Part shown: piece by piece, positions 1 to 15,994 of the stretch
How positions within the stretch are numbered: the stretch's first letter is position 1
How the letters are laid out: every line of letters begins with the position of its first letter
NCBI GenBank assembly: GCA_964420965.1
Contig: CAYQUQ010000006.1
Coordinates: 1 to 50,846, forward strand
DNA: 50,846 nucleotides
Source: an uncultured Planctomycetia bacterium
GTDB lineage: Bacteria; Omnitrophota; Gorgyraeia; Duberdicusellales; 4484-171
Reading direction: 5' to 3'
The notes under the pieces: model-generated
What the model saw: only the letters and a program-made list of their open reading frames with translations
What the model was told of the DNA's origin: nothing
Database searches by the model: none
Program-made: the position numbers and the translations under genes

Positions 1-1306
1 GTCCCAAAGCAATATCTACTACCTGGGGGTCATACTTTATACCCTTATCGCGCTCTAATTCCTGACAAGCTTCATCCAACCCCACTGCTGCCCGGTAGGG
101 ACGATGATGGGTCATGGCCTCCAAAACATCGCTTACGGCCAGAATGCGGGCTTCGGGAAGAATCTTCTCTCCCTTCAGGCGGCGGGGATAACCGGAGCCG
201 TCTAAACGCTCGTGGTGCTGGTAGATTATCTCCGCTAAAGGAAAGGGGAAATCAATCCCCTTGATCAGGTTGTAACAATTTCGGGCGTGCTCTCTAATCA
301 AACTGCTCTCTAAATCGCTTAATTTTCCGGGTTTATTTAAGATATCCAGAGGTATACTGATCTTACCGAGATCATGGAGCTCTCCGGCTAATTTTATCCC
401 CAGGAGACGCTCCTGGCCCCAGCCAAAAGCCCTGCCAATCTCCTCGGCGATGCTGGCCACATGGCGGGTGTGGCTAAAAGTATACGGGTCTCTCATCTCC
501 AGGGCCCGGCCTAAAACCTCAAGCGCATGGATCATCGTGGAAAGGCGCTGCTCTTCAAAGTTAGCGTGCGCGGTCATATCCCGGGTTATCCCCATGGTTC
601 CGATTACCTTTCCCTGGCCATTCCACATGGGGATCTTGGTAGTAATCACCTGATTTTTTCTCCCGTCGGGGAGGGTAGTTTTTTCAATCTTGCCGACGAT
701 AGACTTTCCGGTAGTTACCACATAATTGTCATCGTCAAACATCCTTTTCGCCTGCTCGTAGGGAAAAAAGTCAAAATCGGTCTTGCCGATAATTTCCTCC
801 TCCGGCCGGCCGGAACCTTCCAGGTAAAACTTATTCACCTTTATAATCCGGTTATTGCGGTCCTTAAAATAAACGGCATCGGGAATATTATCTAAAAGGC
901 TTTTTAAAAAGTCCCTCTCGATTAAAAACTGTTTTTGAATGTCTTTCTGGACGGAAATATCCTGGATGATTCCTTCCAGGGAAAGGGTGCCGTCGGTAGA
1001 AAATATACAAGAAACGGTGACGGCTACCCAGAGGGGCTGACCGTTTCTCTTCTTAAAGGTAGTCTCAAAAAGCCTGACTGTTTCGTTGCGGCGCAAAATG
1101 GCATTAAAAATCTTTCGATCCTTGGGGTTGAGAAAGAGACTGTCGATTTTTTCCTTGATAAAATCGCGGCGGGAACTATACCCCAGCATGCGGTAAAGGG
1201 CGGCGTTGGCCGACTGGAAACCCTCCTGAGGAAGAAGACTGTAGCGAAATAAACCGATCCCCAGATTATCGGCCCCGATAAGACTAAGCGAAAAACAATT
1301 ACTCAT
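1..1306 (-). CDS. PAS-PAS-HD-GYP c-di-GMP phosphodiesterase (3'-truncated by window edge; absent from ORF track)
   Basis: Hand translation from ATG 1306 (ATGA overlap with pilO stop) stays open to position 1. Two PAS/PAC segments (LDNIPDAVYFKD...GTMGITRDMT), then RDPYTFSHTRHV, ELHDLGKI and HHERLDGSGYP. Confidence 0.92.
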   Translation of the reverse strand, partial: MSNCFSLSLIGADNLGIGLFRYSLLPQEGFQSANAALYRMLGYSSRRDFIKEKIDSLFLNPKDRKIFNAILRRNETVRLFETTFKKRNGQPLWVAVTVSCIFSTDGTLSLEGIIQDISVQKDIQKQFLIERDFLKSLLDNIPDAVYFKDRNNRIIKVNKFYLEGSGRPEEEIIGKTDFDFFPYEQAKRMFDDDNYVVTTGKSIVGKIEKTTLPDGRKNQVITTKIPMWNGQGKVIGTMGITRDMTAHANFEEQRLSTMIHALEVLGRALEMRDPYTFSHTRHVASIAEEIGRAFGWGQERLLGIKLAGELHDLGKISIPLDILNKPGKLSDLESSLIREHARNCYNLIKGIDFPFPLAEIIYQHHERLDGSGYPRRLKGEKILPEARILAVSDVLEAMTHHRPYRAAVGLDEACQELERDKGIKYDPQVVDIALG

Positions 1307-1854
1307 TTCCCCTTTTCATTAGCCAGGGTAAAGGCATTAAAAACCATTTCCACTCTTACGAACGGGATTCTTTCCGATTTGCGCTGCACAGTCAAAGACT
1401 CAACCAGTATCAGCCTCTCGCTGGCCGACAACTTTTCCATAAACCCGACCAGGTCTTTGTATTCACAGAAAAATTCCGACTCAAAGGGAGCGGCTTTTAT
1501 CCCGGAAATATTGGCCAGCGCATCCGAGGGATTGTCCAGGGTTTTTACGCTCATGGTGCTGATGTTGGAAGCGGCGGCGATTTTCCTGGCTACATGGACC
1601 CCTTCAAAGTGCGATGTCCGTACCGCAGGTATCCGGCGTTCCAATTCATCTTCGGCAGCGCTTGTTTGTTTCTCATCGAAGCCTCTAATCGTAGACTCGG
1701 CGGTAACCATCTCTTTTTCCTTGTTCTTGTAGCTGGCCACTTCAGAGCTGACACCCGACGACATTTTGATCAGAATCACCAGGGCCGCAATCAAGACCAG
1801 GTCAGCGACGATAAGAATAACAACCAGTGTATTCTGGAACCAGTTTTTCTTCAT
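1303..1854 (-). CDS. pilO: PilO/GspM-like alignment protein
   Basis: N-terminal TM helix, coiled coil, C-terminal ferredoxin-like pattern (YKDLVGFMEKL...RLILVESL); follows pilMN. Confidence 0.75.
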   Translation of the reverse strand: MKKNWFQNTLVVILIVADLVLIAALVILIKMSSGVSSEVASYKNKEKEMVTAESTIRGFDEKQTSAAEDELERRIPAVRTSHFEGVHVARKIAAASNISTMSVKTLDNPSDALANISGIKAAPFESEFFCEYKDLVGFMEKLSASERLILVESLTVQRKSERIPFVRVEMVFNAFTLANEKGK

Positions 1855-3572
1855 TTCTCCCCACCCGTTATTTTTGCCGTTATGGTAAACTTACGCTCTT
1901 TAATCGGGGTCAAGTTTTCCCCGGAACCCCCCGAACTCAGCTTAAGGCTCTCTAACTTAAGGGGTGTAAATTCGGTATCCGCGAATAATCCCGAAGACTC
2001 CAGATTGTCACAGAAAATAGCCAGCTGCTTCTCAGACTCCTCGTAAGTGCCTACAATCGCTCCTTTCATTTTAAGCGAAATTCCCCCTTCACTGGTTTTA
2101 GACCCGCCGAAGGGCTCCTGGCTCCGGCTGCGCCCCTCGCCGCCGCCCATCATACCGCTCATGCCCCCCTCACTTTCACTACTGGACGATCCGCTTGCGG
2201 GAACAATCATCATCTCTTCCAAGAATATATTGGGCGGAGTCAGCTTACTAATGGCCACTAAAACTTCCTTCCAGGCCACGCCCATGGCATCGATCCTGGC
2301 GATTAAGGCCTGCTGACTTTCCAGTTGTGACTTTCGGGAATTAATGGCTGCGGCTTTACCGGTAAAATCCCGGTACTTTTCTTCCGAGAACCCGCCCTTT
2401 AACTTCCCCAGTGAAGCCTTGCCTACAAACAGCCGGGTTAAAAAAGTAAAAACGGCTATGCCCAGGATCAAGGTAACCACAAACAGACTATTCAAGGAAA
2501 CAAAGGTAATTTGCTTTTTCCGCTTTTCGACGACAACTTCCTGAGGCAAGAAGTTTAACCCCGGCCCTTTGCCGGCAGCCCCCAGGGCCACTCCGAAGGC
2601 GGTGAAAAACATGGGGCTGATAAGGGAAACCTGCTGGGGGGCAAGTTTGCCCACGGAAACATTTTTAAGCTTACTTAAATCAAAAAGGCCCAGTTCTCCG
2701 CTGATGTTTTTGGTCAGGAATTCAAAAACCGAAGGCACCTTGGCCGTACCTCCGCAGAAAGTAATCTGGTCAATCCGGTCCACCTTGGTAATTTCTTTAT
2801 GGTAGGCAAAAGAACGCCGGATCTCGGATAAAAGGTAACTCTGGCTCTCAAACAAATCTTTCTCGGTAATTTCCCCCCGGAAGAATAAATCCTCGGCTTT
2901 TTTCGCCGCCATACCTTCCTTCTTCGATATCGCGTCGATAAAATCACTCCCGCCGAAGGCAATCTGGCGCATCAGGGTCAACCGATCCTTAATAAAAATA
3001 GCCACAACCGTATTCTTAAACCCGATATCGATCAAAGCCATATTCTTGTCGGAGGGAGAAAAGCTCTCCAGGAATAAATTGATCAAGCTTACTTGGGATG
3101 CTCCGGCAAAAACCGGCTCGATTCTCTGGCTCCGGAAGAGGGAAAAGCGCTGGGAAACCTCTTCCTTGTTGGCGGAAGCGGTGAAAATGTTATAGGCTTC
3201 GGTGTCGGTCTGTACGGTGGAAAGGATGGCATACTTGACGATATCTTCGGCTGCCGGGACCGGTTTTATCCTCCGCCGGGCTTCGCGTAAAATCACCGGA
3301 TCCAGTTCCGACTTCGGCATCTTGGGTAAATCCAGGAGGCAGAAATTCAAGGCCGAAAAGGGGAGAGATATACCCACAGCCGCGCTCTTAACCTCTGCGG
3401 CCGAAACCTTCTCGAAAAGTCTTTCGAAAAATACTTTTCGGTCAATTACGCCGCTATTATCCGACGGAGTCTGAAAATACTCCAGAGTTAAAATCTCCAC
3501 CTTCTTCTGAGTGCCGATCTCTATCACTTTAGTCAAATCCGACCCGACATCAATACCGATTGCTTTTTTCAT
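1851..3572 (-). CDS. pilM: PilM-PilN fusion
   Basis: Actin-like PilM motifs GIDVGS, LIDIGFKNT, FGGSDF, CGGTAK; then PilN NFLP motif, TM helix and periplasmic domain (LSKLTPPNIFL-type segment). Confidence 0.85.
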   Translation of the reverse strand: MKKAIGIDVGSDLTKVIEIGTQKKVEILTLEYFQTPSDNSGVIDRKVFFERLFEKVSAAEVKSAAVGISLPFSALNFCLLDLPKMPKSELDPVILREARRRIKPVPAAEDIVKYAILSTVQTDTEAYNIFTASANKEEVSQRFSLFRSQRIEPVFAGASQVSLINLFLESFSPSDKNMALIDIGFKNTVVAIFIKDRLTLMRQIAFGGSDFIDAISKKEGMAAKKAEDLFFRGEITEKDLFESQSYLLSEIRRSFAYHKEITKVDRIDQITFCGGTAKVPSVFEFLTKNISGELGLFDLSKLKNVSVGKLAPQQVSLISPMFFTAFGVALGAAGKGPGLNFLPQEVVVEKRKKQITFVSLNSLFVVTLILGIAVFTFLTRLFVGKASLGKLKGGFSEEKYRDFTGKAAAINSRKSQLESQQALIARIDAMGVAWKEVLVAISKLTPPNIFLEEMMIVPASGSSSSESEGGMSGMMGGGEGRSRSQEPFGGSKTSEGGISLKMKGAIVGTYEESEKQLAIFCDNLESSGLFADTEFTPLKLESLKLSSGGSGENLTPIKERKFTITAKITGGEK

Positions 3573-3573
3573 A

Positions 3574-4773
3574 TCACCCGCCTACCATTTGCATCATCTT
3601 TATTAAAGGTAAGAATACCGCCAGGGCAATACCGCCCACCACTACCCCCATGATTACGATCAACAGCGGCTCTAAAATGGTAAAAATCTTACGGATGGTC
3701 CGGGGAACCTCTTTGTCGTAAAATTCACACAAGCGCTTAAACCCTTCGGATAAATTACCGGAGCGCTCCCCGACTTCAACCAGCCTTAACAGCAGCGGCG
3801 GGAATATGTTTTTATACCCGAACCCCATGGATAAAGTTCCGCCGGAAACCACCACCCGTTTGGTTTCGGAAACCACGAGCCCCAAATAAGCGTTACCGAT
3901 CAAATTTTCTCCTAAGGCTAAGCACTCTACAGCCGGTATGCCGCCGCCCAAACAGAGCGCCATCGAACGCGAAAACCGGGAAAGGCAGATTTTAAAAATT
4001 AATTGTCCCACTACCGGTAGGTTTATCTTAAGGGCGTCGAACTTAAGCCTTACCCCCGGGTTCTTCAATAGTAATTTTACCAGAAAAACCAGCAAAATGA
4101 TAGCCCCAATTACTAAATACCAGAATTTTCGGAAAGCGTAGCTGACCCCCATCACCATCTTAGTCATCAGCGGCAGATCCGCTCCGGCCTCTTCAAATAT
4201 GGGGATAAATTTAGGTAGCACAAATCCGACCAGAATGCATACCACGATAATCATAACCACGAAGATTATGATCGGATAAGCGGCTAACTCCGTTATTTTG
4301 GCTTTTAAATCCTGCTCCCACTCCAGATAGTTAGCGACCTCTTCCAAGACTTCGGTCAACTCTCCGGTCTTTTCTCCGCTGGAGACAATGGCCCGGTAAA
4401 GAAAAGAAAAGGTACGCGGATGCAATTCTAAAGCCTCCTGCAGCGAACCTCCGGCCTCGATGTACTCTTTTATGCTGTTAATCATCGAGTGCATCTCTTC
4501 ATCGGCCGCGTTATCTTCCGCCAATGACGACAAACTTCCCAAAAGGGAAAGCCCGCCTTTAAGCAGGGCGGCTAAATTGAACGTAAAAGCTAAAATCTTC
4601 TTGGCCTTGATCTTAACGTCTTTTTTCGTATGGGCGGTCTTGTGTTCGTAAGAAATCAATACTTGATTAATCGCATTGAGTTTATCCACTAATTCATTTT
4701 CATCGGTGGCAAAAATCGACCCGTCCACTTTCTTACCAAACCTGTCCCGCGCTACATACTTATATTTCGGCAT
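3574..4773 (-). CDS. pilC: PilC/GspF inner-membrane platform protein
   Basis: MPKYKYVARD start, two T2SSF domains (GEKTGEL, GERSGNL), AYP and LEP motifs. Confidence 0.93.
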   Translation of the reverse strand: MPKYKYVARDRFGKKVDGSIFATDENELVDKLNAINQVLISYEHKTAHTKKDVKIKAKKILAFTFNLAALLKGGLSLLGSLSSLAEDNAADEEMHSMINSIKEYIEAGGSLQEALELHPRTFSFLYRAIVSSGEKTGELTEVLEEVANYLEWEQDLKAKITELAAYPIIIFVVMIIVVCILVGFVLPKFIPIFEEAGADLPLMTKMVMGVSYAFRKFWYLVIGAIILLVFLVKLLLKNPGVRLKFDALKINLPVVGQLIFKICLSRFSRSMALCLGGGIPAVECLALGENLIGNAYLGLVVSETKRVVVSGGTLSMGFGYKNIFPPLLLRLVEVGERSGNLSEGFKRLCEFYDKEVPRTIRKIFTILEPLLIVIMGVVVGGIALAVFLPLIKMMQMVGG

Positions 4774-4898: not shown

Positions 4899-6869
4899 TT
4901 ACTGCATCTGCCAAGTTACGGGAGCTATTTCTCCGTCAACATCCTGGCCGTCGCCGCCGCCACTGGAGCCACCCCGTTCATCATCGTCAGTCGCATCGGC
5001 ACACCCCGCATCATCGGGGAAATCAACCAGGCAATCTCCGTCATCATCAAGGTTATTACTGCATCTGGGTAAAGGATGGGAACATTTTAAGCGTTTGTTG
5101 CAACCCCCAACCGCATTGCCGGCGTTTGATCTTGAAATCCAAACTCCATTAACTGCATCGTACATAATAACATTTTCGTCAAAAGGATGGGAGTAACCAT
5201 GCCAGTACTTACAACAAAAATTAGCATACCCTAAGAGATTGCATGTACGTAATGATGTGGCATCATCATAGCCGGTACCTTTACCGAAAATAGCGTCAAA
5301 ATTGGGTATGTCCTGGCGCATCTCATCGACAACTGGTGTGGAACCATCAGCGGCTACCGCTCCATACATACTCCCGCCACAACTTCCTTTACTGCAACTG
5401 CCGCAGCTAGGGCAGCTGGGGCCGCCGCTGCCCGTACCCAGACAGCGCGTGGGGGGGATATCAATCTGATCCGCCTGTTCATCACAGCCTTCCAGGCCAT
5501 CAGGACCGGTACAAGTTTCATCGTGGGGGATTTCGCTCATATCTTCGGGCACGGCACAGCCATCATCACAGGTAGCGGCATTAGAGCCATCGGCCAGGCA
5601 AAAATCAATTCTCCCGTCGCCGTCGTTATCACTTCCGTCCGCACAGTCCACATCGGTAAAGGGGTCAATTTCTAAATCGAAAGTGCAGCCCCCGGTATTA
5701 TCATCCATCCGGCTGTCCGTAAAATAAGCGTTTAAACTGGCGGCACCGGCGGGAACAACTACATTTTGAAAACCTACAAATTCATAGACGCTTCCGATTC
5801 CGTTACCGGCGGCGTTAAAAAAACGCAGTAAGGGCGCGGACATCCCCCCGATAACCCCGGTGGCCGTGGCGCAAACTTCATTATCCCTTTCGCCGGGATC
5901 GCTGTAAATACCGGTAATATTAATTGCGCTCATGGTATCTCCGGGAGAAAAATCCCCGGCTACGGCCGCCACCATCCCCGGCATTCCCGGGGCGGCCGGG
6001 CCTTCATTGCCGTGCACACCGCAAACACCCCAGAGAGCATCTACATAAAGCCCGGGAAGGGTGGAAGGAGGAGGAGGAAGGGTACCGGTTTGTAACCAGT
6101 CAATCCCTCCGTCACCGTCATTATCGATACCATCATGGCATTCGTCGTCACAGGTAGGATCCGAACAGATTAAGTTATCCATCCAGTAAGGGCTGCTATT
6201 GCCATTAGCCATGTGCCAGGAAGATGAAGCTGTATTCCACCACCAAACCCAGTTATCACCCGGAGAACTCCACTGAGTTTGAGAATAGCCGTCCATGTTA
6301 TTATAACCGCCGAGCGTGCATACCCGCTGCGCAGTTACATCATCGCACCGGGTACTGTGGCCTTGATTGGGGTCGGGTATTCCGGCTCCGTCATCACGGG
6401 CCAAGTCGTAGATTTCCCAGTAACGAAATGTCCTGGTGTAAGCCGCACATGCGGCTTGGGGAGGGGCAGCCACAACACCATCAACCCGGATGGTAATTTC
6501 CCGGCGGGCAATCTCCTGAGCCGAAACCAGGTTGGTGCCGGCTAACACCCGGCCGATACCGGTAATATCCCGCTGGGTAGCCACTGCGCCCACATTAACC
6601 ACCGCAATTTCATAGACATAGAGAAAATGATCCCCGGCCAAGTCTAAATCAGTTTGATCCACCACTCCGGCATAATTAACGTCATTAATAACTTCGATTA
6701 TACCCCTTTCTGCTGCCGCCTGGGCCAGGTAGTAGGCGATAGAGGTATTGCGCTCATTGCTCTGGATTCGGGCTTCGTTTTTAAGGGAGCTGCCCAGGCT
6801 GGCCGCCAAGATTACCACTATTCCCATGAAAATCACTACCGATAAAACGATCTGGGTTTTTTTAGGCAT
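4899..6869 (-). CDS. PilX-like minor pilin fused to a large Cys/Asp-rich putative adhesin region
   Basis: Hydrophobic N-helix plus PilX motif AYYLAQAAAERGI; three C-x-[DN]-x2-D-x-DGD motifs; C-terminal pilin strand ending WQ. Confidence 0.75.
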   Translation of the reverse strand: MPKKTQIVLSVVIFMGIVVILAASLGSSLKNEARIQSNERNTSIAYYLAQAAAERGIIEVINDVNYAGVVDQTDLDLAGDHFLYVYEIAVVNVGAVATQRDITGIGRVLAGTNLVSAQEIARREITIRVDGVVAAPPQAACAAYTRTFRYWEIYDLARDDGAGIPDPNQGHSTRCDDVTAQRVCTLGGYNNMDGYSQTQWSSPGDNWVWWWNTASSSWHMANGNSSPYWMDNLICSDPTCDDECHDGIDNDGDGGIDWLQTGTLPPPPSTLPGLYVDALWGVCGVHGNEGPAAPGMPGMVAAVAGDFSPGDTMSAINITGIYSDPGERDNEVCATATGVIGGMSAPLLRFFNAAGNGIGSVYEFVGFQNVVVPAGAASLNAYFTDSRMDDNTGGCTFDLEIDPFTDVDCADGSDNDGDGRIDFCLADGSNAATCDDGCAVPEDMSEIPHDETCTGPDGLEGCDEQADQIDIPPTRCLGTGSGGPSCPSCGSCSKGSCGGSMYGAVAADGSTPVVDEMRQDIPNFDAIFGKGTGYDDATSLRTCNLLGYANFCCKYWHGYSHPFDENVIMYDAVNGVWISRSNAGNAVGGCNKRLKCSHPLPRCSNNLDDDGDCLVDFPDDAGCADATDDDERGGSSGGGDGQDVDGEIAPVTWQMQ

Positions 6870-8041
6870 CAGTTCCTCGTCCTCACTCCCGAACGCAAAT
6901 GATGGGTTCGGCCTCTTCTCTGGGTGGTTAATTCGATGGTTATAAAGGATGCACTCCCGGCATTGGATAAAGCCTGGATCTCGCCGGCGTCTAAGGGTCG
7001 ATTCCAGACTTTGACTTCGTCGATAAAGCCGCCCCAGAACCGGTTGTCTTCGTCGCCGTTTCTGCCGATAGAGGTCCCCCGATGGGGCGGATTATGGGGG
7101 TGGGTATAAACAATGTTGCCGGTAGCCGGGATTGAATTCTCTAAATTACCGTCAACGTAAAGCGAAGCCGTGCTACCGTCATAAGTAGCGGCCACATGGT
7201 GCCATTGGTCGTCGTTGTAATCCTGAGTTGAATCTACATTATAGCGTTGGGGAAAACCTCTGGTAAAGGCGAATCTTAAAATGCCGCTGCCGGCAGGAAC
7301 GTGAATGTCCGGCCCGACATCTCGGCACCGCTTATAAATAAACCGGGCGCCCCAGGCACCACTGAATGTCCCCGAGTATCTCACCCAGGCCGAAATAGTA
7401 ATGTTTACCGGAATTTCCAATAAGGGGGTAACCGGTAAATGAACATAGTCGCCGCTACCCGGCCCTCCGGTGCCGTGGCTGAAGCTTACTACGTTACCCT
7501 TTACCGGATCACTGACAATATGAGCCCCCCGCATAAATGTCCCGTTAATGCCGTTTTGAGGGTCATTGGCTGTGCCGTCGTCAAACAGCCAGCAGGCCAC
7601 CTCGTCCCCGGCGCAGGTTCCCGCGGCTCCGCCGGTGTCGATAGTAGCAAAAGCATTGCCGTTAGCGTTATCCACCACAAAGTCGGCTAACTCCTGGCGG
7701 GTAGCCACGGCCGTAGCCACATCCGGGCCTTGGCCGCGAAAAATACGGTCGTTGTTGGCTCCCCCGCGCCAATACCAGACCCGGACACCCCCGGTGAGCT
7801 CAAAGTGAAACCCGTCTACCCCGGCCGGGATATCGGCCTGGCTTAAGTTGGTGCCTTCCCGGGCTTCACTGATTATGGCTTCCAGAGCCCAGCGGCAATT
7901 CTGAATTACGTCTAAATCCATCCTCTGCCGTTCCCAGGAACGCTGGAGGGAGAAAAATAACCCTCCGGCGGCTACGGAGATAATGGCAAAAACGGCGATG
8001 ACTACCATCACCTCGATAAGGGTAAACCCTTTAAGCTTCAT
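6869..8041 (-). CDS. PilW-like minor pilin with LamG/concanavalin-like domain
   Basis: KG/FTLIEV prepilin motif; LamG motifs ITISAWV, WHHVAATYDG, LYVDG, GFIDEVKVWNRPL. Confidence 0.85.
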   Translation of the reverse strand: MKLKGFTLIEVMVVIAVFAIISVAAGGLFFSLQRSWERQRMDLDVIQNCRWALEAIISEAREGTNLSQADIPAGVDGFHFELTGGVRVWYWRGGANNDRIFRGQGPDVATAVATRQELADFVVDNANGNAFATIDTGGAAGTCAGDEVACWLFDDGTANDPQNGINGTFMRGAHIVSDPVKGNVVSFSHGTGGPGSGDYVHLPVTPLLEIPVNITISAWVRYSGTFSGAWGARFIYKRCRDVGPDIHVPAGSGILRFAFTRGFPQRYNVDSTQDYNDDQWHHVAATYDGSTASLYVDGNLENSIPATGNIVYTHPHNPPHRGTSIGRNGDEDNRFWGGFIDEVKVWNRPLDAGEIQALSNAGSASFITIELTTQRRGRTHHLRSGVRTRN

Positions 8042-8044
8042 AAA

Positions 8045-8446
8045 CTACCAGTTTCCTCGAAAGGTAGAGACAGTCCGGGATCCGGTCCGGGCCCCGATCT
8101 GCCAGAGTACGGTTATGTCAATTCTTCGTAATTCCAGCTGTCCGGCCGGGTGTCCGGTATGGGGATAGGTTAAGTGGGAAGTAACTACCGTCTCCCGGCG
8201 GTACTGGGGAAAATCGGCAATGCTCCCGTAGCCTTCGATAGTGGTAGCTACCGCTGGTAAAGCCGCGGGATAGCTTAGCTCTTCCATCCTTTCCCGGGCT
8301 AAACTTACGGCTACACTATCCACGCGGGAGCGGCCCAGGGCCATATAGCCCTGGCGAAAGATAACGGCGATGCCGTAAGAGACCAGCATCAGCACCATTA
8401 CCGCTACCGCCAGCTCAATAAGACTGAAAGTTCGTTTTAATCCCAT
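8045..8446 (-). CDS. PilV/GspI-like minor pilin
   Basis: KRT/FSLIEL motif, AVSLARERMEEL, RRIDITVLW. Confidence 0.8.
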   Translation of the reverse strand: MGLKRTFSLIELAVAVMVLMLVSYGIAVIFRQGYMALGRSRVDSVAVSLARERMEELSYPAALPAVATTIEGYGSIADFPQYRRETVVTSHLTYPHTGHPAGQLELRRIDITVLWQIGARTGSRTVSTFRGNW

Positions 8447-8874
8447 CGGATATAACCGGTCTGTCCGAATACGGTTACCTGCCGGGTTCTTCCTCTGTGG
8501 GTTAAGGTTATCACCAGATCCTGGGTGGTTCCGTAAAGGGCCTCAAAGGTAAGAGTGGTTAAAGCTGCCGGGTTTAAGGCCACCCCCCCGATATCCATCT
8601 GCTCGGTATCCAGCAAAGTGCCGGTGAGCGGGTCTCCCCGGTATACCTCGTACCGGAGGTTGACCGTATCGAAAGCGACAGTATGGTCGTGGTGCCGGGC
8701 CACAGCCAGATCCCGCACTGCGGCTAAATCGCTGGCCAGCTCCCGGGCCTGGGCATCGAGTTGCTTGGGGCTGAGGCTGGAAAAAGAAACCCCGATTACC
8801 CCGGTAAGCACCCCGATTATGGCTAACACCACCATAATCTCGATAAGGGTAAACCCCCTGCGCTTAAATAGCAT
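8437..8874 (-). CDS. FimT/FimU/GspH-like minor pilin
   Basis: RRG/FTLIEI motif, ARELASDL...RDLAV, C-terminal VTVFGQTG. Start moved to ATG 8874. Confidence 0.8.
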   Translation of the reverse strand: MLFKRRGFTLIEIMVVLAIIGVLTGVIGVSFSSLSPKQLDAQARELASDLAAVRDLAVARHHDHTVAFDTVNLRYEVYRGDPLTGTLLDTEQMDIGGVALNPAALTTLTFEALYGTTQDLVITLTHRGRTRQVTVFGQTGYIRWD

Positions 8875-8953
8875 TCTACCTTTGATAAAACCCCTCCTTG
8901 AAAGCACCCCGCACCCGGCATTGCCGGGTACAGGGATATTAATCTAATCGCAA

Positions 8954-9496
8954 TTAACGATGCAGGTAAACTATAATGTCATCCCGACCGGTATCAGCAT
9001 CGCCGGTATTTATACCGCAAATCAAATCTGCGCGGTTCCAACAAACTCTGTTTCCATCTGGCCCACGGCAAAGAAAGCTAGCGCAGGCGCCAGGGTGCCC
9101 AGGTTGACCCACAGGACATCTCCATTCATTAGGGTGTCCGTCATAATAGTAGTTTCTTCCCCAGGGATCCAGAGCTACGGCCTTCTGCAAATAAGGCCCT
9201 TGCCAGGTGTTAGCAGGGTAGCCATTATTGCAAAGCAAACCATAACGGCAGTCATTCAAGGCTGCGGAAGTAGTAGCATCACCCATCCATCCGCCGTCTC
9301 TTTCGCCGGGAGTTCTGCCGGTATCAGCCAGCAGAGAGAACATCGCCGTGGATGTGTTTTTGACTTCTGCTTGGGCCTTGGCAATCCGGGCCCTCTCCAC
9401 CATGTGCATGATCTGGGGCAGCATAATCGTGGCCAGAATCGCGATGATGGCCAAAACCACCATCAATTCGATTAAGGTAAACCCTTTTCTCACCAT
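8954..9496 (-). CDS. GspG-like pilin/pseudopilin, Cys-rich
   Basis: KG/FTLIELMVV motif, WQGPYL, DPWGRNY, DDI. Confidence 0.85.
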   Translation of the reverse strand: MVRKGFTLIELMVVLAIIAILATIMLPQIMHMVERARIAKAQAEVKNTSTAMFSLLADTGRTPGERDGGWMGDATTSAALNDCRYGLLCNNGYPANTWQGPYLQKAVALDPWGRNYYYDGHPNEWRCPVGQPGHPGACASFLCRGPDGNRVCWNRADLICGINTGDADTGRDDIIVYLHR

Positions 9497-9537
9497 TTTC
9501 CCTCCTTTCTGTAATCTTCTTGTTCTCCACTCTGTTT

Positions 9538-9681
9538 TTAAACTTCATCCGGCTGGACATCTTCTTCTACAGCCCTGTTGGCATTGGCCTTGATCACCTG
9601 GGTGACCACCAGCCCGATACAAAGAACAAAGATGAGAAAGGCTATAATTCCCACCATCTTGTTGTTCTTCCAGTTCGCCAT
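9538..9681 (-). CDS. 47-aa single-TM micro-protein (WKNNK family, copy 2)
   Basis: MANWKNNKMVGIIAFLIFVLCIGLVVTQVIKANANRAVEEDVQPDEV*. Preceded by SD AAGGAGGTG; paralog at 10368-10535. Confidence 0.8.
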   Translation of the reverse strand: MANWKNNKMVGIIAFLIFVLCIGLVVTQVIKANANRAVEEDVQPDEV

Positions 9682-9747
9682 CACTTCACCTCCTTAACTT
9701 TCCCGCTCAAGGCGGGGATCCCCAATCTTACTCTCCCCCCTATTAAC

Positions 9748-10326
9748 CTACTCCCGAATCAGAAAAATAGTCAACCAGTAGTTGTTCCCGAAATCTTCTA
9801 CCTGGCCGCGAGTCTGCCAACCACCCTCAACGCCGTCGATGATACCGTTTACCAGTTGTCGCACCCATTGACTCACCCCGCCGAACAGCGCTTGATTACC
9901 GTTGCCGGTAGTATCCACGGTACCATTCATGTCCAGGTCAAACCCGATTCCGCCGGCACCTGACGGCCAAACGCTTAAGCTGCGGTAAACCCCTAAAAAA
10001 TGGTTGCCAAAAGGGTTTTGGCCGGTGGTCAAGGGTGTCCGCAAATAAGGGCCATTCCAGGCAGTAGCGCCGCCGGGATTCATTGACAGCTGATGGTTAG
10101 CGGGTCCGGTATAACCCGGAGCAGCATACTCTAAACCGAATCCGCCCAGGTCATGACGGTACATCTCCCCGGCCGTGCGGAAAGTATCGGCTAAAGCCAC
10201 AATCTTGGCCGCCTTGGCTTTATCCATAGCCCGGGTAATCTGGGGAGTAATCATCACCCCCAGAATAGCGATGATGGCAATAACTACCATCAATTCAATC
10301 AAAGTAAAACCGCTTTTCATCTTCAT
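9748..10326 (-). CDS. GspG-like pilin/pseudopilin (candidate major subunit)
   Basis: SG/FTLIELMVV motif, WNGPYL, NPFG; strong SD AAGGAGG. Confidence 0.85.
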   Translation of the reverse strand: MKMKSGFTLIELMVVIAIIAILGVMITPQITRAMDKAKAAKIVALADTFRTAGEMYRHDLGGFGLEYAAPGYTGPANHQLSMNPGGATAWNGPYLRTPLTTGQNPFGNHFLGVYRSLSVWPSGAGGIGFDLDMNGTVDTTGNGNQALFGGVSQWVRQLVNGIIDGVEGGWQTRGQVEDFGNNYWLTIFLIRE

Positions 10327-10579: not shown

Positions 10580-12265
10580 TTAAGTAACCCGAAACACTTC
10601 ATCCACGGTAGTGATACCGGAAAAAAGCTTATTTAAAGCTTCATTACGCAAAACAGACATGCCTCCCTCGATGGCAATTTTGCGCATATTCTCGGCCGAC
10701 TCCTTGCGCAAAATAGCCGCCTGAAGCGTGGAGGAAGTACGCAAAAGCTCGTAAATCCCCAATCTCCCTTTATAGCCGGTATTACCGCAAATAGTGCACC
10801 CTTTTCCCCGGTAAAATTTTGCTCCCTCGGGTAGTTTCTCCTTTAACTTCAGAGAGGCGATTACCTCCGGAGTAGGGGTGTAAGCCTCCTTGCACTTGGA
10901 GCAGATTTTACGCACCAGGCGCTGGGCTAAAACCCCCAATAAAGACGAAGAGACTAAAAACGGCTCCACCCCCATATCGATCAAGCGGTTAAAAGCAGTA
11001 GGCGCATCATTGGTGTGCAGGGTGGAAAAAACCAGATGCCCGGTCAGCGCGGCCTGGATGGCAATCTCGGCGGTCTCTAAATCCCGGATTTCACCGACCA
11101 TGATGATATCCGGATCCTGCCGTAAAAAGCTGCGTAAAGTGCCAGAAAAATTAAGCCCGATTTTCGAGTGTACCTGCACCTGGCGCATCCCGTGAAACTG
11201 GTATTCCACCGGGTCCTCCACAGTCATGATGTTTACATCTTCTTTATTGAGCAGCTGCAGGGCCGAATAAAGGGTAGTGGTCTTTCCCGAACCGGTGGGC
11301 CCGGTGACCAGGATTATCCCGTAAGGCAGCTCAATCATTTCTTTAAACCGGGTTAAATCATTATCCGAAAACCCCAGCGATTTTAAACCGACCACCAGCC
11401 CGGATTTATCCAGCACCCTTAACACGATATTCTCGCCGTGCACGCTGGGACAGGTGGAAACGCGAAAATCGATCTCTTTGGCCTCGATCTTCATCCGCAG
11501 CCGGCCGTCTTGGGGCAGGCGCTTCTCGGATATATCCAAGGCCGATAAAATCTTGGTCCGGGAGATAATCGGGGCCTGGAGGAGTTTAGGGGCAACGTGG
11601 CGTTTATGCAAAACACCGTCAATGCGGTAGCGGATATTGACCACTTTTTCTTCGGGCTCGATATGGATATCCGAAGCTTTATCGTGGACGGCTTTACTGA
11701 TCATCAGGTTAACCAGCCGGATTACGTTGGCTTCCTGCTCCCGGTCCCCGGCTAAAAGCTTCTTATGGTCAATAGCCGAAAGCACCTCTTCCACTGTCCC
11801 CGAAGAACGGTAATGCTGTTCAATAGCCCAGGAAACATCGGCCTCACTGGCTAAAAGAGTCTTGACCTTACACCCACTGCGGTCGCGGATGTAATCAATA
11901 GCCACAATATCGTTAGGGTTGGGCGTAGCCAGGTAGAGGATATTTTCGGAGAGAAATAAAGGCACCACTTTGAATTCCCGGGCATCGTGCTCGTTGACCA
12001 GAGAAAGAACATCCTTTTCCACGATGTAATCCCCGAGATTAGCTACCTCGGTCTCCATCTGGGAAGCTAAGGCCAGATTTATCTGTTCCGACGCAGCCCA
12101 GCCGCGCTCGACCAGCAGGTCACCCAGGCGCTGGCCGGTAACTTTCTGCTCGGCTAAAGCCTGCCTGAGGACGCTTTCGGTAATTACGGATTCGGCAATT
12201 AAAAGCTCGCCTAACTTTTTTCGTACGGAAGGTCTGGATGTGTTTTTGGGGTCGCTCTCCGCCAT
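10580..12265 (-). CDS. pilB: PilB/GspE assembly ATPase with N-terminal MshEN domain
   Basis: Walker A GPTGSGKTT, LRQDPDIIMVGE, STLHTND, CxxC...CxxC. N-terminal KLGELL...LAEQ and RLGDLL...LASQ. Confidence 0.95.
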   Translation of the reverse strand: MAESDPKNTSRPSVRKKLGELLIAESVITESVLRQALAEQKVTGQRLGDLLVERGWAASEQINLALASQMETEVANLGDYIVEKDVLSLVNEHDAREFKVVPLFLSENILYLATPNPNDIVAIDYIRDRSGCKVKTLLASEADVSWAIEQHYRSSGTVEEVLSAIDHKKLLAGDREQEANVIRLVNLMISKAVHDKASDIHIEPEEKVVNIRYRIDGVLHKRHVAPKLLQAPIISRTKILSALDISEKRLPQDGRLRMKIEAKEIDFRVSTCPSVHGENIVLRVLDKSGLVVGLKSLGFSDNDLTRFKEMIELPYGIILVTGPTGSGKTTTLYSALQLLNKEDVNIMTVEDPVEYQFHGMRQVQVHSKIGLNFSGTLRSFLRQDPDIIMVGEIRDLETAEIAIQAALTGHLVFSTLHTNDAPTAFNRLIDMGVEPFLVSSSLLGVLAQRLVRKICSKCKEAYTPTPEVIASLKLKEKLPEGAKFYRGKGCTICGNTGYKGRLGIYELLRTSSTLQAAILRKESAENMRKIAIEGGMSVLRNEALNKLFSGITTVDEVFRVT

Positions 12266-12441: not shown

Positions 12442-14466
12442 TTAGTTATAGGCGTCCAGGGCTCTCTCGATCTCTTCCTTCCTTTTCATCTCCCGATCGG
12501 TCCAGGAAGTACGCTCCCGTTGCAGTTGAACCTCCCGGGCTTCCTTCTCTTCTTCAATAAGCTTAGGGATTATTCTTAAGTAAGTGGCGCTGTTGGCATA
12601 CCCCGGGCTGATTCTCTCCACCTCACTAAAATAATCAAAGGCCTTAAGGTATTCCCCTTCTTTATACAGGGAGACGGCCTGGCGGTAAAGGGCATCAGCC
12701 TTGTCACTGACCTTATCGCGGGTTATTTTCTGCAATCTCTTTTCCTCTTGCTTGACCTCGCGCTGGAAAATTTTGTCTATTTTTCGCAGGTAATATTCGG
12801 TCTTTCCGTAACCCGGGCTTAAAGTCTGCAGCTGTTTGAATTTCTCCTCGGCCCGGGGATAATCTTTCTGCCCGTACAAGGTCAATGCTTCCTTATAAAG
12901 CTCTCGGACTTCTCGCTTTCTTGCGGTTTTGGCCTGCTTTTCGGCCTCAGCCTGTTGCCGAGTCTCTTCGGCAATCTGCTCCTGCTCTGCTCTCAGCTGC
13001 TCCTTTTCGGCCCGGAGCCTTTCTTGCTCGGCTTTTTTTTCCGCACTCTGCTCCTGTTTTTCCCGCTTTTTTCGCTCCTTTCGGATAAGCTTGGGCAGAA
13101 TTCTTAAGTAATAGTCAGTTTTGGCATAACCGGGACGCAATTCGTGAACCGCGTTAAATGTTTCATAAGCTTCCTCGTACCTTCTCTGCCGATAGAGGGA
13201 ACGGGCTGAACTGTAAAGCTGCTCGGCCTGCGCTAATCTCTCGGCCTCCTCTTCCTCTTCGGTAAGGCCCTTAAGCTCTTTTTCCAAAGCATCAGTGCGG
13301 GCTACTTCTTTAAGCGGTACCATCTTCAGCACTGACCTTCTTCCTTCCACCCGGGGCCTGATCCTTTCCTCGACTGCGGCGCTGTACTCAAATTCCGGCC
13401 GGGTGATAATGGTCGGTGAGACGAATATTACCAATTCGGTTTTTTCCGTTCGCGTCTTTGCGCTCTTGAACAGATAACCCAGATAAGGTATATCTCCTAA
13501 GAGGGGTATCTTTGATTCGCCATCGATAACCTTATTCTTGATCATTCCGCCGATAATCAAAGTCTCCCCGCTGGCCACGACTACTTTGGTCTGGGCCTGG
13601 CGGCTCTCGATAATCGGCACTGTATATTCTACCTCCTGATTATTGGCGGTAGTTAAAGTAATCTCGTAATCATCGGTTTTTTCGCTTACTTCCGGCTGAA
13701 GGAGCATGCTGATTTTCCCGTCCTCGTTTATGGTCGGGGTAGTTTTAAGAATAATCCCGGCCGGTTCAAAATTAACCTCCCAGCTGACTTCCGACCCGCC
13801 CTCGCTGGTGGAAACTGTCGGCTCAGCCCAGGGATAGACATCGGTCACCCTGATTTCGGCTTCCCGGTTATTAACCGTGGTAATGCTGGGAGCGGATAGA
13901 ATATCAGTATCATATTCATTGGCCAGAGCCTGCATAACTAAAGATATATTGTCATTAGCCACGGTAAGACTGAAAGGAGTCTCCGAGCCACTCGCGACCT
14001 GGTTAGGAGGATAGTAGGTGTTTTTATAAGAGGTAGCCTGGGTTATGCCCTGGCCGGCATTAGCCGAATAGACGTTAAACCCGCCCATGGTAAACCCGTT
14101 CTTATCGGCGAAAAGGGTCCAGTTTATCCCCAAAGCATTTTCGCCTTCCAGCTTAACCTCCACTATCCGGGCTTCGATGTGCACCTGCTGGGGCGGGACA
14201 TCGACCATACCCAGGTACTCTTCAACCCGCTTGATATTCTCCGGATAATCGATGACCAGGATGGAATTGGCTTCATCGCCGTAGAGAACCTCCCCCTGCT
14301 CGGAGAGAAGAGGATCGATAGCCGAAACGTTTCTGCCGGCGCCTCCGATCCCACCCGAATCCGAGCCCGCTCCGGAAAGAGCGCTGGCCGCCGACTCCAG
14401 GCCCTGGCTGAATCCGGAAAGCGCGAACGATAAACACAATATCAAGCTTAAAGCCTGCTTGACCAC
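12442..14466 (-). CDS. Secretin, C-terminal half (partial N domain + beta-barrel) with TPR-like/coiled-coil extension
   Basis: Own signal peptide. NSILVID...VDVPPQQVHIEARIVEV, ILSAPSITT, GETLIIGG, KIPLLGDIPYLGYLFKS, ELVIFVSPTII. Start may be ATT at 14496 or 14493. Confidence 0.9.
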   Translation of the reverse strand: MVKQALSLILCLSFALSGFSQGLESAASALSGAGSDSGGIGGAGRNVSAIDPLLSEQGEVLYGDEANSILVIDYPENIKRVEEYLGMVDVPPQQVHIEARIVEVKLEGENALGINWTLFADKNGFTMGGFNVYSANAGQGITQATSYKNTYYPPNQVASGSETPFSLTVANDNISLVMQALANEYDTDILSAPSITTVNNREAEIRVTDVYPWAEPTVSTSEGGSEVSWEVNFEPAGIILKTTPTINEDGKISMLLQPEVSEKTDDYEITLTTANNQEVEYTVPIIESRQAQTKVVVASGETLIIGGMIKNKVIDGESKIPLLGDIPYLGYLFKSAKTRTEKTELVIFVSPTIITRPEFEYSAAVEERIRPRVEGRRSVLKMVPLKEVARTDALEKELKGLTEEEEEAERLAQAEQLYSSARSLYRQRRYEEAYETFNAVHELRPGYAKTDYYLRILPKLIRKERKKREKQEQSAEKKAEQERLRAEKEQLRAEQEQIAEETRQQAEAEKQAKTARKREVRELYKEALTLYGQKDYPRAEEKFKQLQTLSPGYGKTEYYLRKIDKIFQREVKQEEKRLQKITRDKVSDKADALYRQAVSLYKEGEYLKAFDYFSEVERISPGYANSATYLRIIPKLIEEEKEAREVQLQRERTSWTDREMKRKEEIERALDAYN

Positions 14467-14535
14467 ACCCCGTTTAGGTTTATTTACCGTAATAATGGTC
14501 CACCTCCTGCTAATAGAACGTACTTCTACTTATCC

Positions 14536-15402
14536 TTATTCTCCGCCGCCGCCTCCGGAATCACCGCCGGAATCGCCGCCACCTTGGCCACCTACATCTA
14601 AACTATATTCTTCAGTCCTTACTTCACCTTCTTCTTCTACGCCCACCAGCTCTTTGGAGCTGATATACTTTAATTTAAAGACACGACTGGTGGTTTTGCG
14701 GTCCACAGCCTCGAGATAACTCTCGATATTCTTAACATTGGGAGGGTAATCGATGACCAACAGAGAATTAGGCAATTTTCCCAGGAATATCTTCCCCTCT
14801 TGGGAAAGAAGGTCATATATGGTATTCTCTCCGGAAACCCCTCCGCCCGAATCGCCTTCTCCGCCGGCTCCTCCGACTCCTTCGCCGCCTTCGCCGCCTT
14901 CGCCGGATTCACTTCCGCTGCTGCTGCGCGCCCCTTCCAGTAGCTCTTTAGCCTCTGCGGACCTTAAAACAAAGGTTTTAGCGATTAAATGCGGGAAAAC
15001 CCGGATGATATTCCCGTCCTTTTCCAGGGCCAGGTTATTATTCTTAAGGATTACCTTCAAGGCCTCTTCTAAAGAGATATTGGAAAAACTGGCGGTAACC
15101 TCACCTTTCACATCCTTATCCACCAGGATGTTTAAGCCGTAATCATGGGCAAATACCCGCAGGAGATCTCCGACTTCGACATCACGAAACTCCATGGAAA
15201 AACTGTCGCCGGCCTGCTGCTCCACCCGCATTAACGGCGGCTCCTGCTGGACAGCTGTTTCTCCGCCGCTGGGAGACTCAAACTCGCCCCCCCCGCCGGG
15301 AATTTCCCCGCCGGCAAAATCCTCGTCGGCTTGCGCAAAACATATTGGAGTAAACCAGAAACCCAACGCCATCAGCACAAAATAAATAACTACTTTTTTC
15401 AT
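14536..15402 (-). CDS. Secretin, N-terminal half (N0/STN + N domain + start of next N domain)
   Basis: Signal peptide; FSMEFRDVEVGDLLR...VDKDVKGEVT (N0); KTFVLRSAEA...NSLLVIDYP (N domain); ends SRVFKLKYISSKEL plus Gly/Glu tail. Confidence 0.85.
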   Translation of the reverse strand: MKKVVIYFVLMALGFWFTPICFAQADEDFAGGEIPGGGGEFESPSGGETAVQQEPPLMRVEQQAGDSFSMEFRDVEVGDLLRVFAHDYGLNILVDKDVKGEVTASFSNISLEEALKVILKNNNLALEKDGNIIRVFPHLIAKTFVLRSAEAKELLEGARSSSGSESGEGGEGGEGVGGAGGEGDSGGGVSGENTIYDLLSQEGKIFLGKLPNSLLVIDYPPNVKNIESYLEAVDRKTTSRVFKLKYISSKELVGVEEEGEVRTEEYSLDVGGQGGGDSGGDSGGGGGE

Positions 15403-15809
15403 TCTGTATCCCCCTCGAATAAGTCCGGCAAGTGCAAAATGACTTGCCCGCCCCTGTCCATTAATACTACCTGATCCCGCGTAATCGCGATAACCTGTCT
15501 GCTGCCGACGGTCTGGCCTTCGCTTAATACCTGCCCTCCGATTAAGGCTTTCTTGCCTTTATCGGATATAAAAATGGCGGTAAGATTTAAGCTTAAGCCC
15601 TCATCGTCTTCCTGGATAACCCCGGCCATCTTTAGCGCCGCTTCTTCTTCCACCTTTAAAAAAGGATTACGCAGCTCCTCACTATCCGAAACAGTATCGA
15701 TAGTATCGATAGTATCGATAGCCTCATCGATAGCCAATGCCGCCGGCATAAAAGTAAGGCTTAAACCTAAAGCCAGAGCTAAAACCTGAACCACTAAGTT
15801 AATTTTCAT
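15399..15809 (-). CDS. PilP/GspB-like periplasmic protein
   Basis: Signal peptide, RNPF, LNLTAIF...KALIGGQVLSEGQTVG; directly upstream of the secretin genes. Confidence 0.7.
   Translation of the reverse strand: MKINLVVQVLALALGLSLTFMPAALAIDEAIDTIDTIDTVSDSEELRNPFLKVEEEAALKMAGVIQEDDEGLSLNLTAIFISDKGKKALIGGQVLSEGQTVGSRQVIAITRDQVVLMDRGGQVILHLPDLFEGDTE
15693..15720. repeat. 9-bp in-frame tandem repeat (AGTATCGAT x3)
   Basis: Encodes IDTIDTIDT just after the signal peptide. Confidence 0.8.
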
Positions 15810-15994
15810 TATCCTCTCCCCAGTATTTTTCTCAGCTTCTTAATATCGCCGGCCGTATACTCCCGCCACTTATTAATCGGGTTACGCCGGGATTTAGGAA
15901 ATATACCTTTTTTCTCGTAACGGATAACCGTCTGTTTGGAAATGCCTAATTCCTTAACCACCTCTTCAATCGTAAAATAACGGCTTTTTACCAT
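15809..15994 (-). CDS. Stand-alone MerR-like/BldC-like winged HTH protein
   Basis: FTIEEVVKELGISKQTVIRYEKKG...RNPINKWREY; 61 aa with no effector domain; first gene of the operon. Confidence 0.85.
   Translation of the reverse strand: MVKSRYFTIEEVVKELGISKQTVIRYEKKGIFPKSRRNPINKWREYTAGDIKKLRKILGRG

Follow-up and report, generated by a model that had tools for sequence, protein, structure and literature searches.

A secretin encoded in two adjacent genes and cut inside its barrel-proximal N domain in an uncultured Omnitrophota bacterium

Secretins are usually treated as rings of one polypeptide, in which the N3 domain is needed for assembly. Split secretins are already known in mitochondria and rhizobia. 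In the mitochondrial type II secretion system (T2SS), several polypeptides make up the secretin, namely GspD, GspDL, and GspDN1-3, according to the sections available to us of PMC8134430 and PMC10128026, and in the former GspDN2 is described as the C-terminal and GspDN3 as the N-terminal half of one N domain. In the type III secretion system of rhizobia, rhcC1 and rhcC2 are two genes of different origins that lie apart, and RhcC2 derives from a Tad locus (PMC4500985 and available sections of PMC3574062, PMC3973906, and PMC3459982). In a search that reached few subscription journals, we came across no paper dealing with a cut of this kind, inside the barrel-proximal N domain, in a bacterial secretin, nor one on the secretins of Omnitrophota. 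The secretin described here is distributed over two adjacent genes, termed gene A and gene B, in a stretch of 50,846 nt ("the window"; positions 1 to 50,846 of contig CAYQUQ010000006.1 in assembly GCA_964420965.1) from an uncultured bacterium filed under Planctomycetia and assigned to the Omnitrophota (Gorgyraeia; Duberdicusellales; 4484-171) in GTDB. All of the features of the window given below are on the minus strand.

Gene A (14536..15402) encodes 288 amino acids (aa) comprising a putative Sec signal peptide read from the sequence (15334..15402; aa 1-23), the N0/STN domain (14986..15207; aa 66-139; PF07660 with 37.9 bits and PF21305), the intact N domain N1 (14695..14985; aa 140-236; PF03958), a stub that represents the barrel-proximal N domain by its first strand and first helix turn (14641..14694; aa 237-254), and an acidic Gly-rich tail that is variable among relatives (14539..14640). 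The stub sequence, SRVFKLKYISSKELV, is a second copy of the first strand and helix turn, and gene A ends with SRVFKLKYISSKEL followed by the tail. Gene B (12442..14496) encodes 684 aa from its likely ATT start or 674 aa from a GTG at 14466. Its putative Sec signal peptide (14407..14496; aa 1-30) and a Gly/Ser/Ala linker, likewise read from the sequence and low in predicted local distance difference test score (pLDDT) (14326..14406; aa 31-57), precede the last N domain's C-terminal portion (14191..14325; aa 58-102) and the secretin barrel domain (13405..14190; aa 103-364; PF00263). The linker shrinks to a few residues in most relatives. The fold of the barrel matched those of PilQ, GspD, and InvG (Foldseek E of 4e-16 against PilQ 6w6m), and the barrel is followed by a C-terminal extension (12445..13269) in which three TPR-like helical repeats are accompanied by charged coiled-coil spacers. 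Pfam detected STN/N0 (90-137, above the cut-off) and Secretin_N (143-235) in gene A, and Secretin (155 bits; cut-off 27.5), TPR, and Secretin_N restricted to positions 14-69 of the PF03958 profile in gene B; both of the Secretin_N matches were slightly below the cut-off. In their second halves, N1 and the last N domain share 41-50% identity. Altogether, the barrel, N0, and the ring-building N domains of the secretin superfamily are present, though across two genes. These Pfam matches and the sequence agree with the anatomy put forward in the first-pass annotation, in which gene A ends after a strand, a helix, and a tail and gene B supplies the rest of the domain and the barrel. The Gly-rich loop noticed there at the split position of the intact N domain is present as well, as a Gly/Ser/Glu loop at approximately aa 158-190. 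The TPR-type extension is a subgroup trait seen in the relative L040, and L035, L073, and L078 also have long B genes; more speculatively, the extension may be a built-in pilotin or scaffold.

At the junction (14497..14538), the stop codon TAA of gene A (14538-14536) is followed by GGA, a second in-frame TAA (14532-14530), a Shine-Dalgarno sequence (SD), AGGAGGTG (14508-14501), and gene B in the frame of gene A. The two stops and the strong SD had been noticed before and were confirmed, with the refinement that no ATG follows the SD. The candidate starts are ATT at 14496, which sits 6 nt past AGGAGG and shares its alignment column with the ATG of L040, L073, and L078, and GTG at 14466, which aligns with the GTG starts of L035 and L068 and lacks a well-spaced SD. 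A start at ATT would be unusual, because 95 of the 113 strong-SD gene starts in this genome have ATG or GTG at that spacing (the other 18 are mostly misplaced matches). Judging from the spacing and the alignment, gene B likely starts at ATT 14496 in this genome. Such a start could reduce the output of gene B here. Contigs of the runs X1 and X2, both of which are possibly the source sample filed twice, bridge 14298-14611, including the region 14460-14540 for which read support had been called for, with zero differences; the junction was outside the coverage of the runs X3, X4, X6, and X7. A scan for promoters and terminators stayed at chance level, with no terminator between the gene A stop and the gene B start.

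When 60 relatives were searched at the protein level, orthologue-level matches were obtained in 16 genomes; a further 39 genome and 53 metagenome loci came from pattern searches. The titles of 39 records, as filed, comprise 25 Omnitrophota/Omnitrophica, 11 Planctomycetes, one Deltaproteobacteria, and two "bacterium." Both parts were found in 84 of the 109 loci examined, i.e., 75 split loci with N1, four split loci without N1, and five single-chain loci; 24 incomplete loci and L088 were left out. The last of these (L088:8-952) has an additional stop inside N1 of gene A on one metagenome contig, which is either an error or a second break. After the loci were collapsed at 95% identity, 52 of the remaining 55 were cut at the same point and three were single-chain. 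The relatives with the same cut are at 37-71% identity, with both halves conserved, and A and B are neighbors in an unchanged order in all of the complete split loci. In a search of the whole family, the orthologue was detected in 24 of the 74 genomes (22 split, one fused, and one truncated where its contig ends); when genomes were drawn evenly from the phylum, 12 of 301 had it (11 split and one fused). Thus, we regard the secretin as a patchy subfamily rather than a phylum-wide trait. The claim that the secretin is naturally split in the middle of an N domain is borne out by these counts.

Split-form sequences, the stub motif among them, served as seeds for the above searches, which may inflate the share of split forms. 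Nevertheless, searches based on the barrel agree that the split form is the commonest. Among the best 120 protein matches to B, 115 were short chains with a hydrophobic leader and without the stub, four were fused, and one was partial, while most of the 23 representatives at E <1e-50 start at the half-domain (five are fused and two are fragments). Apart from the split secretin, this 1.56-Mb genome has six secretins (contigs C9, C12, C18, C24, C38, and C41), all of which are single-chain; in the N domain of the one on C18, a Gly/Glu loop occupies the same site.

The frame shared by the two genes, to which the first-pass annotation drew attention, holds for this genome and is incidental, as the frame of B relative to A is 0, +1, and +2 in 19, 18, and 15 of the 52 split loci, respectively. 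Among 14 junctions read by eye, the two genes range from overlapping by 29 nt to being separated by 245 nt (L044), and the start codons of B in the 13 relatives are ATG in 12 and GTG in one. The suggestion that each half has its own signal peptide is supported by a heuristic passed by 54 of the 55 A-type proteins and by the B leaders of 51 of the 52 split loci, as opposed to none of the 48 controls and none of the three fused junctions. The evenly distributed frames and the signal-like leaders of B indicate that stop read-through is not the rule. For the family, both read-through and sequencing error are excluded.

The stub is under selection. The mean entropy of residues 240-250 is 1.03, in comparison with 1.60 for the same element of N1, 1.17 for N0, and 2.81 for the tail, which makes the stub as conserved as N0 and one of the most conserved parts of A. 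F242, K243, L244, and Y246 are conserved in 46, 45, 43, and 45 of 48 sequences, respectively, and the entropy of the half-domain of B is 1.23. The Phe of the stub is followed by 16-56 residues up to the C-terminus of A in the 52 split loci. A stub-type sequence is kept in all four split loci without N1 (L043, L084, L130, and L132), implying that the partner of the stub is not N1. N1 itself has been lost several times in these loci. In the single chains L082, P0010, and P0022, a stub-type element is joined to a B-type half via a Ser/Thr loop. An N1-type element was found next to the barrel in the single chains P0001, P0002, and, weakly, L111, being the outcome expected of a deletion between the two N repeats. 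At the split site, distant secretins have either a straight, loop-free read-through (e.g., P0027) or loops. In one well-supported clade (L032, L034, L039, L041, L084, L115, L117, and L132), the stub is followed by a charged helical tail that is conserved and replaces the low-complexity one, and the half-domain of B shows a distinct motif.

We modeled the region from the stub through the barrel end by AlphaFold with X at both stops, a 135-row alignment, and approximately 105 read-through residues linking the two parts. In this linked model, pLDDT was 90-95 for stub residues 1-20, of which residues 7-12 form a paired strand, and 96-98 for the half-domain of B; the 105 residues of the link were disordered. 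Model residues 3-173 were superposed on one N domain of XcpQ (5mp2_A with Z of 10.4 and 1.6 Å over 65 aligned residues; 4e9j_B with 1.4 Å over 63 residues). As B supplies approximately 45 residues, approximately 20 of the 65 superposed residues are from the stub. From its first residues on, the model aligned with the N3-plus-barrel part of GspD, PilQ, and InvG. The stub and the half-domain of B are predicted by this model to fold into one standard N domain. A complex prediction of B (half-domain and barrel) with A (N1 and stub) gave an interaction prediction score from aligned errors (ipSAE) of 0.16 against a mark of 0.32, with the controls not folded, and counts neither for nor against the pairing. 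A single-sequence fold of the fused relative L033 had a pLDDT of 38 and was set aside.

As far as the available text of PMC8134430 goes, no known case of an N domain cut internally is closer than that of GspDN2 and GspDN3. On the other hand, the mitochondrial secretin is described there as the product of eukaryotic nuclear genes without N0 and with a fragmented barrel, whereas the split secretin in the window belongs to a bacterial operon with N0 present and the barrel whole. We infer that the two splits are of independent origin. RhcC1 and RhcC2 resemble A and B in that a bacterial secretin function is distributed over an N-domain gene and a pore gene, but in the available sections on the rhizobial proteins the two are not described as sharing one domain, whereas A and B are adjacent halves of one gene. 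In addition, B has no BON match, scored 221 bits for GspD and 201 bits for PilQ, lies among type IV filament genes, and has natural fused forms, none of which is in accord with RhcC1/RhcC2. The type IVb bundle-forming pilus provides another parallel: as described in the available part of PMC12531336, a separate N0-like partner, BfpG, binds near the N3 ring of BfpB, and the N3 of BfpB carries an insertion that separates strand 1 from helix 1, near the cut site in the window. BfpB differs in being complete on its own chain, with the insertion forming a structured third barrel and no chain break. Nothing on N3 loops was found in the part of PMC6532946 available to us.

Among solved structures, the single-chain PilQ/HofQ proteins (TIGR02515; PDB 9sh1, 4av2, 6w6m, and 6ve2) are the best sequence matches. 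They share the order of N0, N domain(s), and barrel with the split secretin, and homologues of PilM, PilB, and PilC are present in this locus. The split secretin differs from PilQ in having two genes, a second signal peptide, a cut in the last N domain, and a TPR extension, and in lacking an AMIN match; with TIGR02515 (cut-off of 284 bits), B scored 200.8, A 74.9, and a natural fused relative 277.2 bits, all below the cut-off. The stacked N domains and barrel are also common to GspD/PulD/XcpQ (TIGR02517; PDB 5wq8, 6hcg, 5wln, and 5mp2), on the N domain of which the rebuilt domain was superposed at 1.4-1.6 Å, and GspG- and GspH-like pilins are encoded near the secretin in the window. In contrast to GspD with three N domains after N0 on one chain, there are two over two chains here, and B (221 bits) and the fused relative (267 bits) were both below the TIGR02517 cut-off of 351 bits.

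The gene anatomy, the conservation of the cut and the stub, and the natural single-chain relatives are directly established. We consider it probable (approximately 0.72) that A and B constitute a two-chain secretin of a type IV filament machine that is held together by fragment complementation. Both chains would be exported separately by Sec, and the terminal strand and helix turn of A would slot into the incomplete domain at the start of B. The resulting stable, non-covalent 1:1 pair would represent a normal N0-N1-N3-barrel subunit in the periplasm, and such pairs would assemble as a ring in the outer membrane, with N0 docking on an upstream PilP/GspC-like protein. The loose ends, i.e., the tail of A and the linker of B, would fall at the position of the low-complexity loop of the single-chain relatives. 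It is in this loop that the cut likely arose, on a single occasion, and the lack of structure there probably let it be tolerated. The data show no benefit of being split. Fold complementation had already been suggested in the first-pass annotation and, given the conserved stub, the single-chain relatives, and the linked model, is the likeliest link between the two chains, albeit the model indicates fit only. The accompanying idea of a detachable or exchangeable periplasmic gate is not supported: nothing shows exchange, and the separate part is the N0-N1 docking module. The gate of a secretin is part of the barrel domain, which is encoded wholly in gene B, and was therefore misplaced in that idea. 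In the available text of PMC8134430, N3 is described as needed for pore assembly, for which reason we favor a stable join over an exchangeable one. By analogy with BfpB, whose N3 insertion builds an inner barrel (available part of PMC12531336), the loose ends of A and B may face the lumen. A further-reaching proposal, of which we are rather doubtful, is that the strand of A serves as an assembly licence, i.e., B completes its ring-building N3 domain and becomes pore-competent only after the N0-N1 adaptor docks by strand complementation, so that the pore is tied to the inner machine, and that the loop between strand 1 and helix 1 is a recurrent break point used independently in Omnitrophota and mitochondria.

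The main competitor of the two-chain complementation, which corresponds to the detachable idea of the first-pass annotation, is that B alone forms the pore, to which A attaches through its stub as an optional or exchangeable periplasmic adaptor, perhaps below a 1:1 ratio, in a manner similar to RhcC1. Independent expression is permitted by the separate SD and signal peptides, the two genes are as far as 245 nt apart in L044, RcpA of Pseudomonas aeruginosa assembles without N3 (available part of PMC10499894), and RhcC1 was proposed to link RhcC2 to the inner rings (available part of PMC3459982). Nevertheless, B retains a conserved two-thirds domain without a core strand, and, unlike rhcC1 and rhcC2, A and B lie side by side in all of the complete split loci. 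Thus, we regard a pore of B alone as unlikely. It is also conceivable that the stub completes the N domain of a neighboring subunit or swaps into N1 of another A, stitching the ring together. Being separate, the chains could swap, N1 and the last N domain resemble each other in their second halves (see above), and a single-chain model cannot discriminate pairing within a subunit from that with a neighbor. As N1 has its own first strand and the loci without N1 keep the stub, we find such a swap improbable, and pairing with a neighboring B would differ from pairing within a subunit mostly in ring register.

Two further explanations would remove the second chain or the second gene altogether. The shared frame and the lack of an ATG after the SD in the window are what one would expect if a single polypeptide were made by stop read-through, frameshifting, or later joining, with the second signal peptide being incidental. 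This explanation has very little left to it in the light of the two stops in the window, the random frames and variable gaps (-29 to +245 nt) in relatives, and the signal-like leader that is found at the junctions of 51 of the 52 split loci and at none of the three fused ones. A sequencing error or a decaying pseudogene might be suspected in a low-depth metagenome assembly, in which the junction is confirmed only by contigs possibly from the source sample and the ATT start could mark early decay in this one genome. The occurrence of the same cut in 52 of the 55 non-redundant relatives with both halves conserved refutes such an artifact for the family, and we consider it highly improbable for the window.

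In quick trees, P0003 and P0022, the single chains with a long loop, were placed outside the split group, while the other single chains appeared at three places inside. The best trees imply four to five changes between the split and single-chain forms, which suggests that one split was followed by later re-fusion.

Several points weigh against the two-chain complementation and its proposed history. Split forms may have been over-counted, because the searches were seeded with them, and 50 of the 74 family genomes had no match. The signal peptides of A and B were assigned by a simple heuristic. RNA contigs, representing small shares of the RNA runs, reach only 13615-13924 within the locus. Covariation, corrected for the overall distance, was 0.23 between the stub and B and 0.19 between the stub and N1, and thus does not discriminate between the two partners. 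The chains were linked in the AlphaFold model and 50 rows of the alignment were other secretins with a continuous N domain, so that the model represents a fit to a known fold and not binding in trans. The assembly of RcpA without N3 counts here as well. Finally, approximately unbiased (AU) tests rejected neither a single clade of the split forms (p of 0.114 and 0.357) nor a single clade of the fused forms (p of 0.351). As these alternatives were left standing, re-fusion is no more than a suggested direction of the change.

A lineage that cuts N3 yet keeps both pieces is a natural system for studying the formation of the pore apart from the docking to the inner machine, in which the natural single-chain relatives can serve as controls for B alone, A alone, and stub mutants. 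It also provides a bacterial parallel to the half-domain proteins GspDN2 and GspDN3 of the mitochondrial T2SS. The split explains incomplete annotation: a number of B proteins are recorded as hypothetical, and the ATT start may escape gene callers, with P0004, for instance, beginning at residue 18.

The operon is headed by a gene for a 61-aa MerR-type helix-turn-helix protein (15809..15994; Pfam MerR). This gene is shared by 41 of 54 related loci, and L036, L037, and L045 carry it as a tandem pair. The next gene encodes a 136-aa exported protein without a Pfam match (15399..15809), homologues of which are present in 23 of the 54 loci. This protein is likely the PilP/GspC/GspB-type partner of N0, and the open reading frames at the same position in L035 and L041 have a weak T2SSB match below the cut-off. 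Downstream of gene B are the genes for a PilB/GspE assembly ATPase with an MshEN domain (10580..12265; in 45 of the 54 loci), two major-pilin-like proteins, GspH-like and further minor-pilin-like proteins (one with LamG), and a 656-aa protein without a family match (4899..10326), as well as a PilC/GspF platform protein, a PilM-type protein of 573 aa, and a 183-aa membrane protein that would occupy the PilO position (1303..4773). The PilB/GspE, pilin, PilC/GspF, and PilM-type genes were all below the NCBIfam cut-offs for type IVa pili and type II secretion. Two PilT-family genes above the cut-off are located elsewhere in the genome, which has seven secretins. The secretin probably serves a type IV filament machine, either a pilus or a T2SS-like system.

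The long PilM-type gene (1851-3572) is likely a PilM-PilN fusion. A PAS/HD-domain gene (2-1306) lies after the cluster and, together with the MshEN domain of PilB, hints at control by cyclic di-GMP. Directly before gene A, four related loci have a gene for an exported protein of approximately 650 aa (L035:11078-13048, L038:10780-12735, L041:9452-11404, and L044:10756-12723) with a weak match to the metallopeptidase-like DUF6782 below the cut-off, which is a candidate substrate or accessory protein. A membrane spermidine-synthase-like gene is found beside the secretin or PilB genes in L032 (3490-6800), L039 (3569-6917), and L038 (652-2961), possibly for pilin modification, and two loci also have a radical SAM gene.

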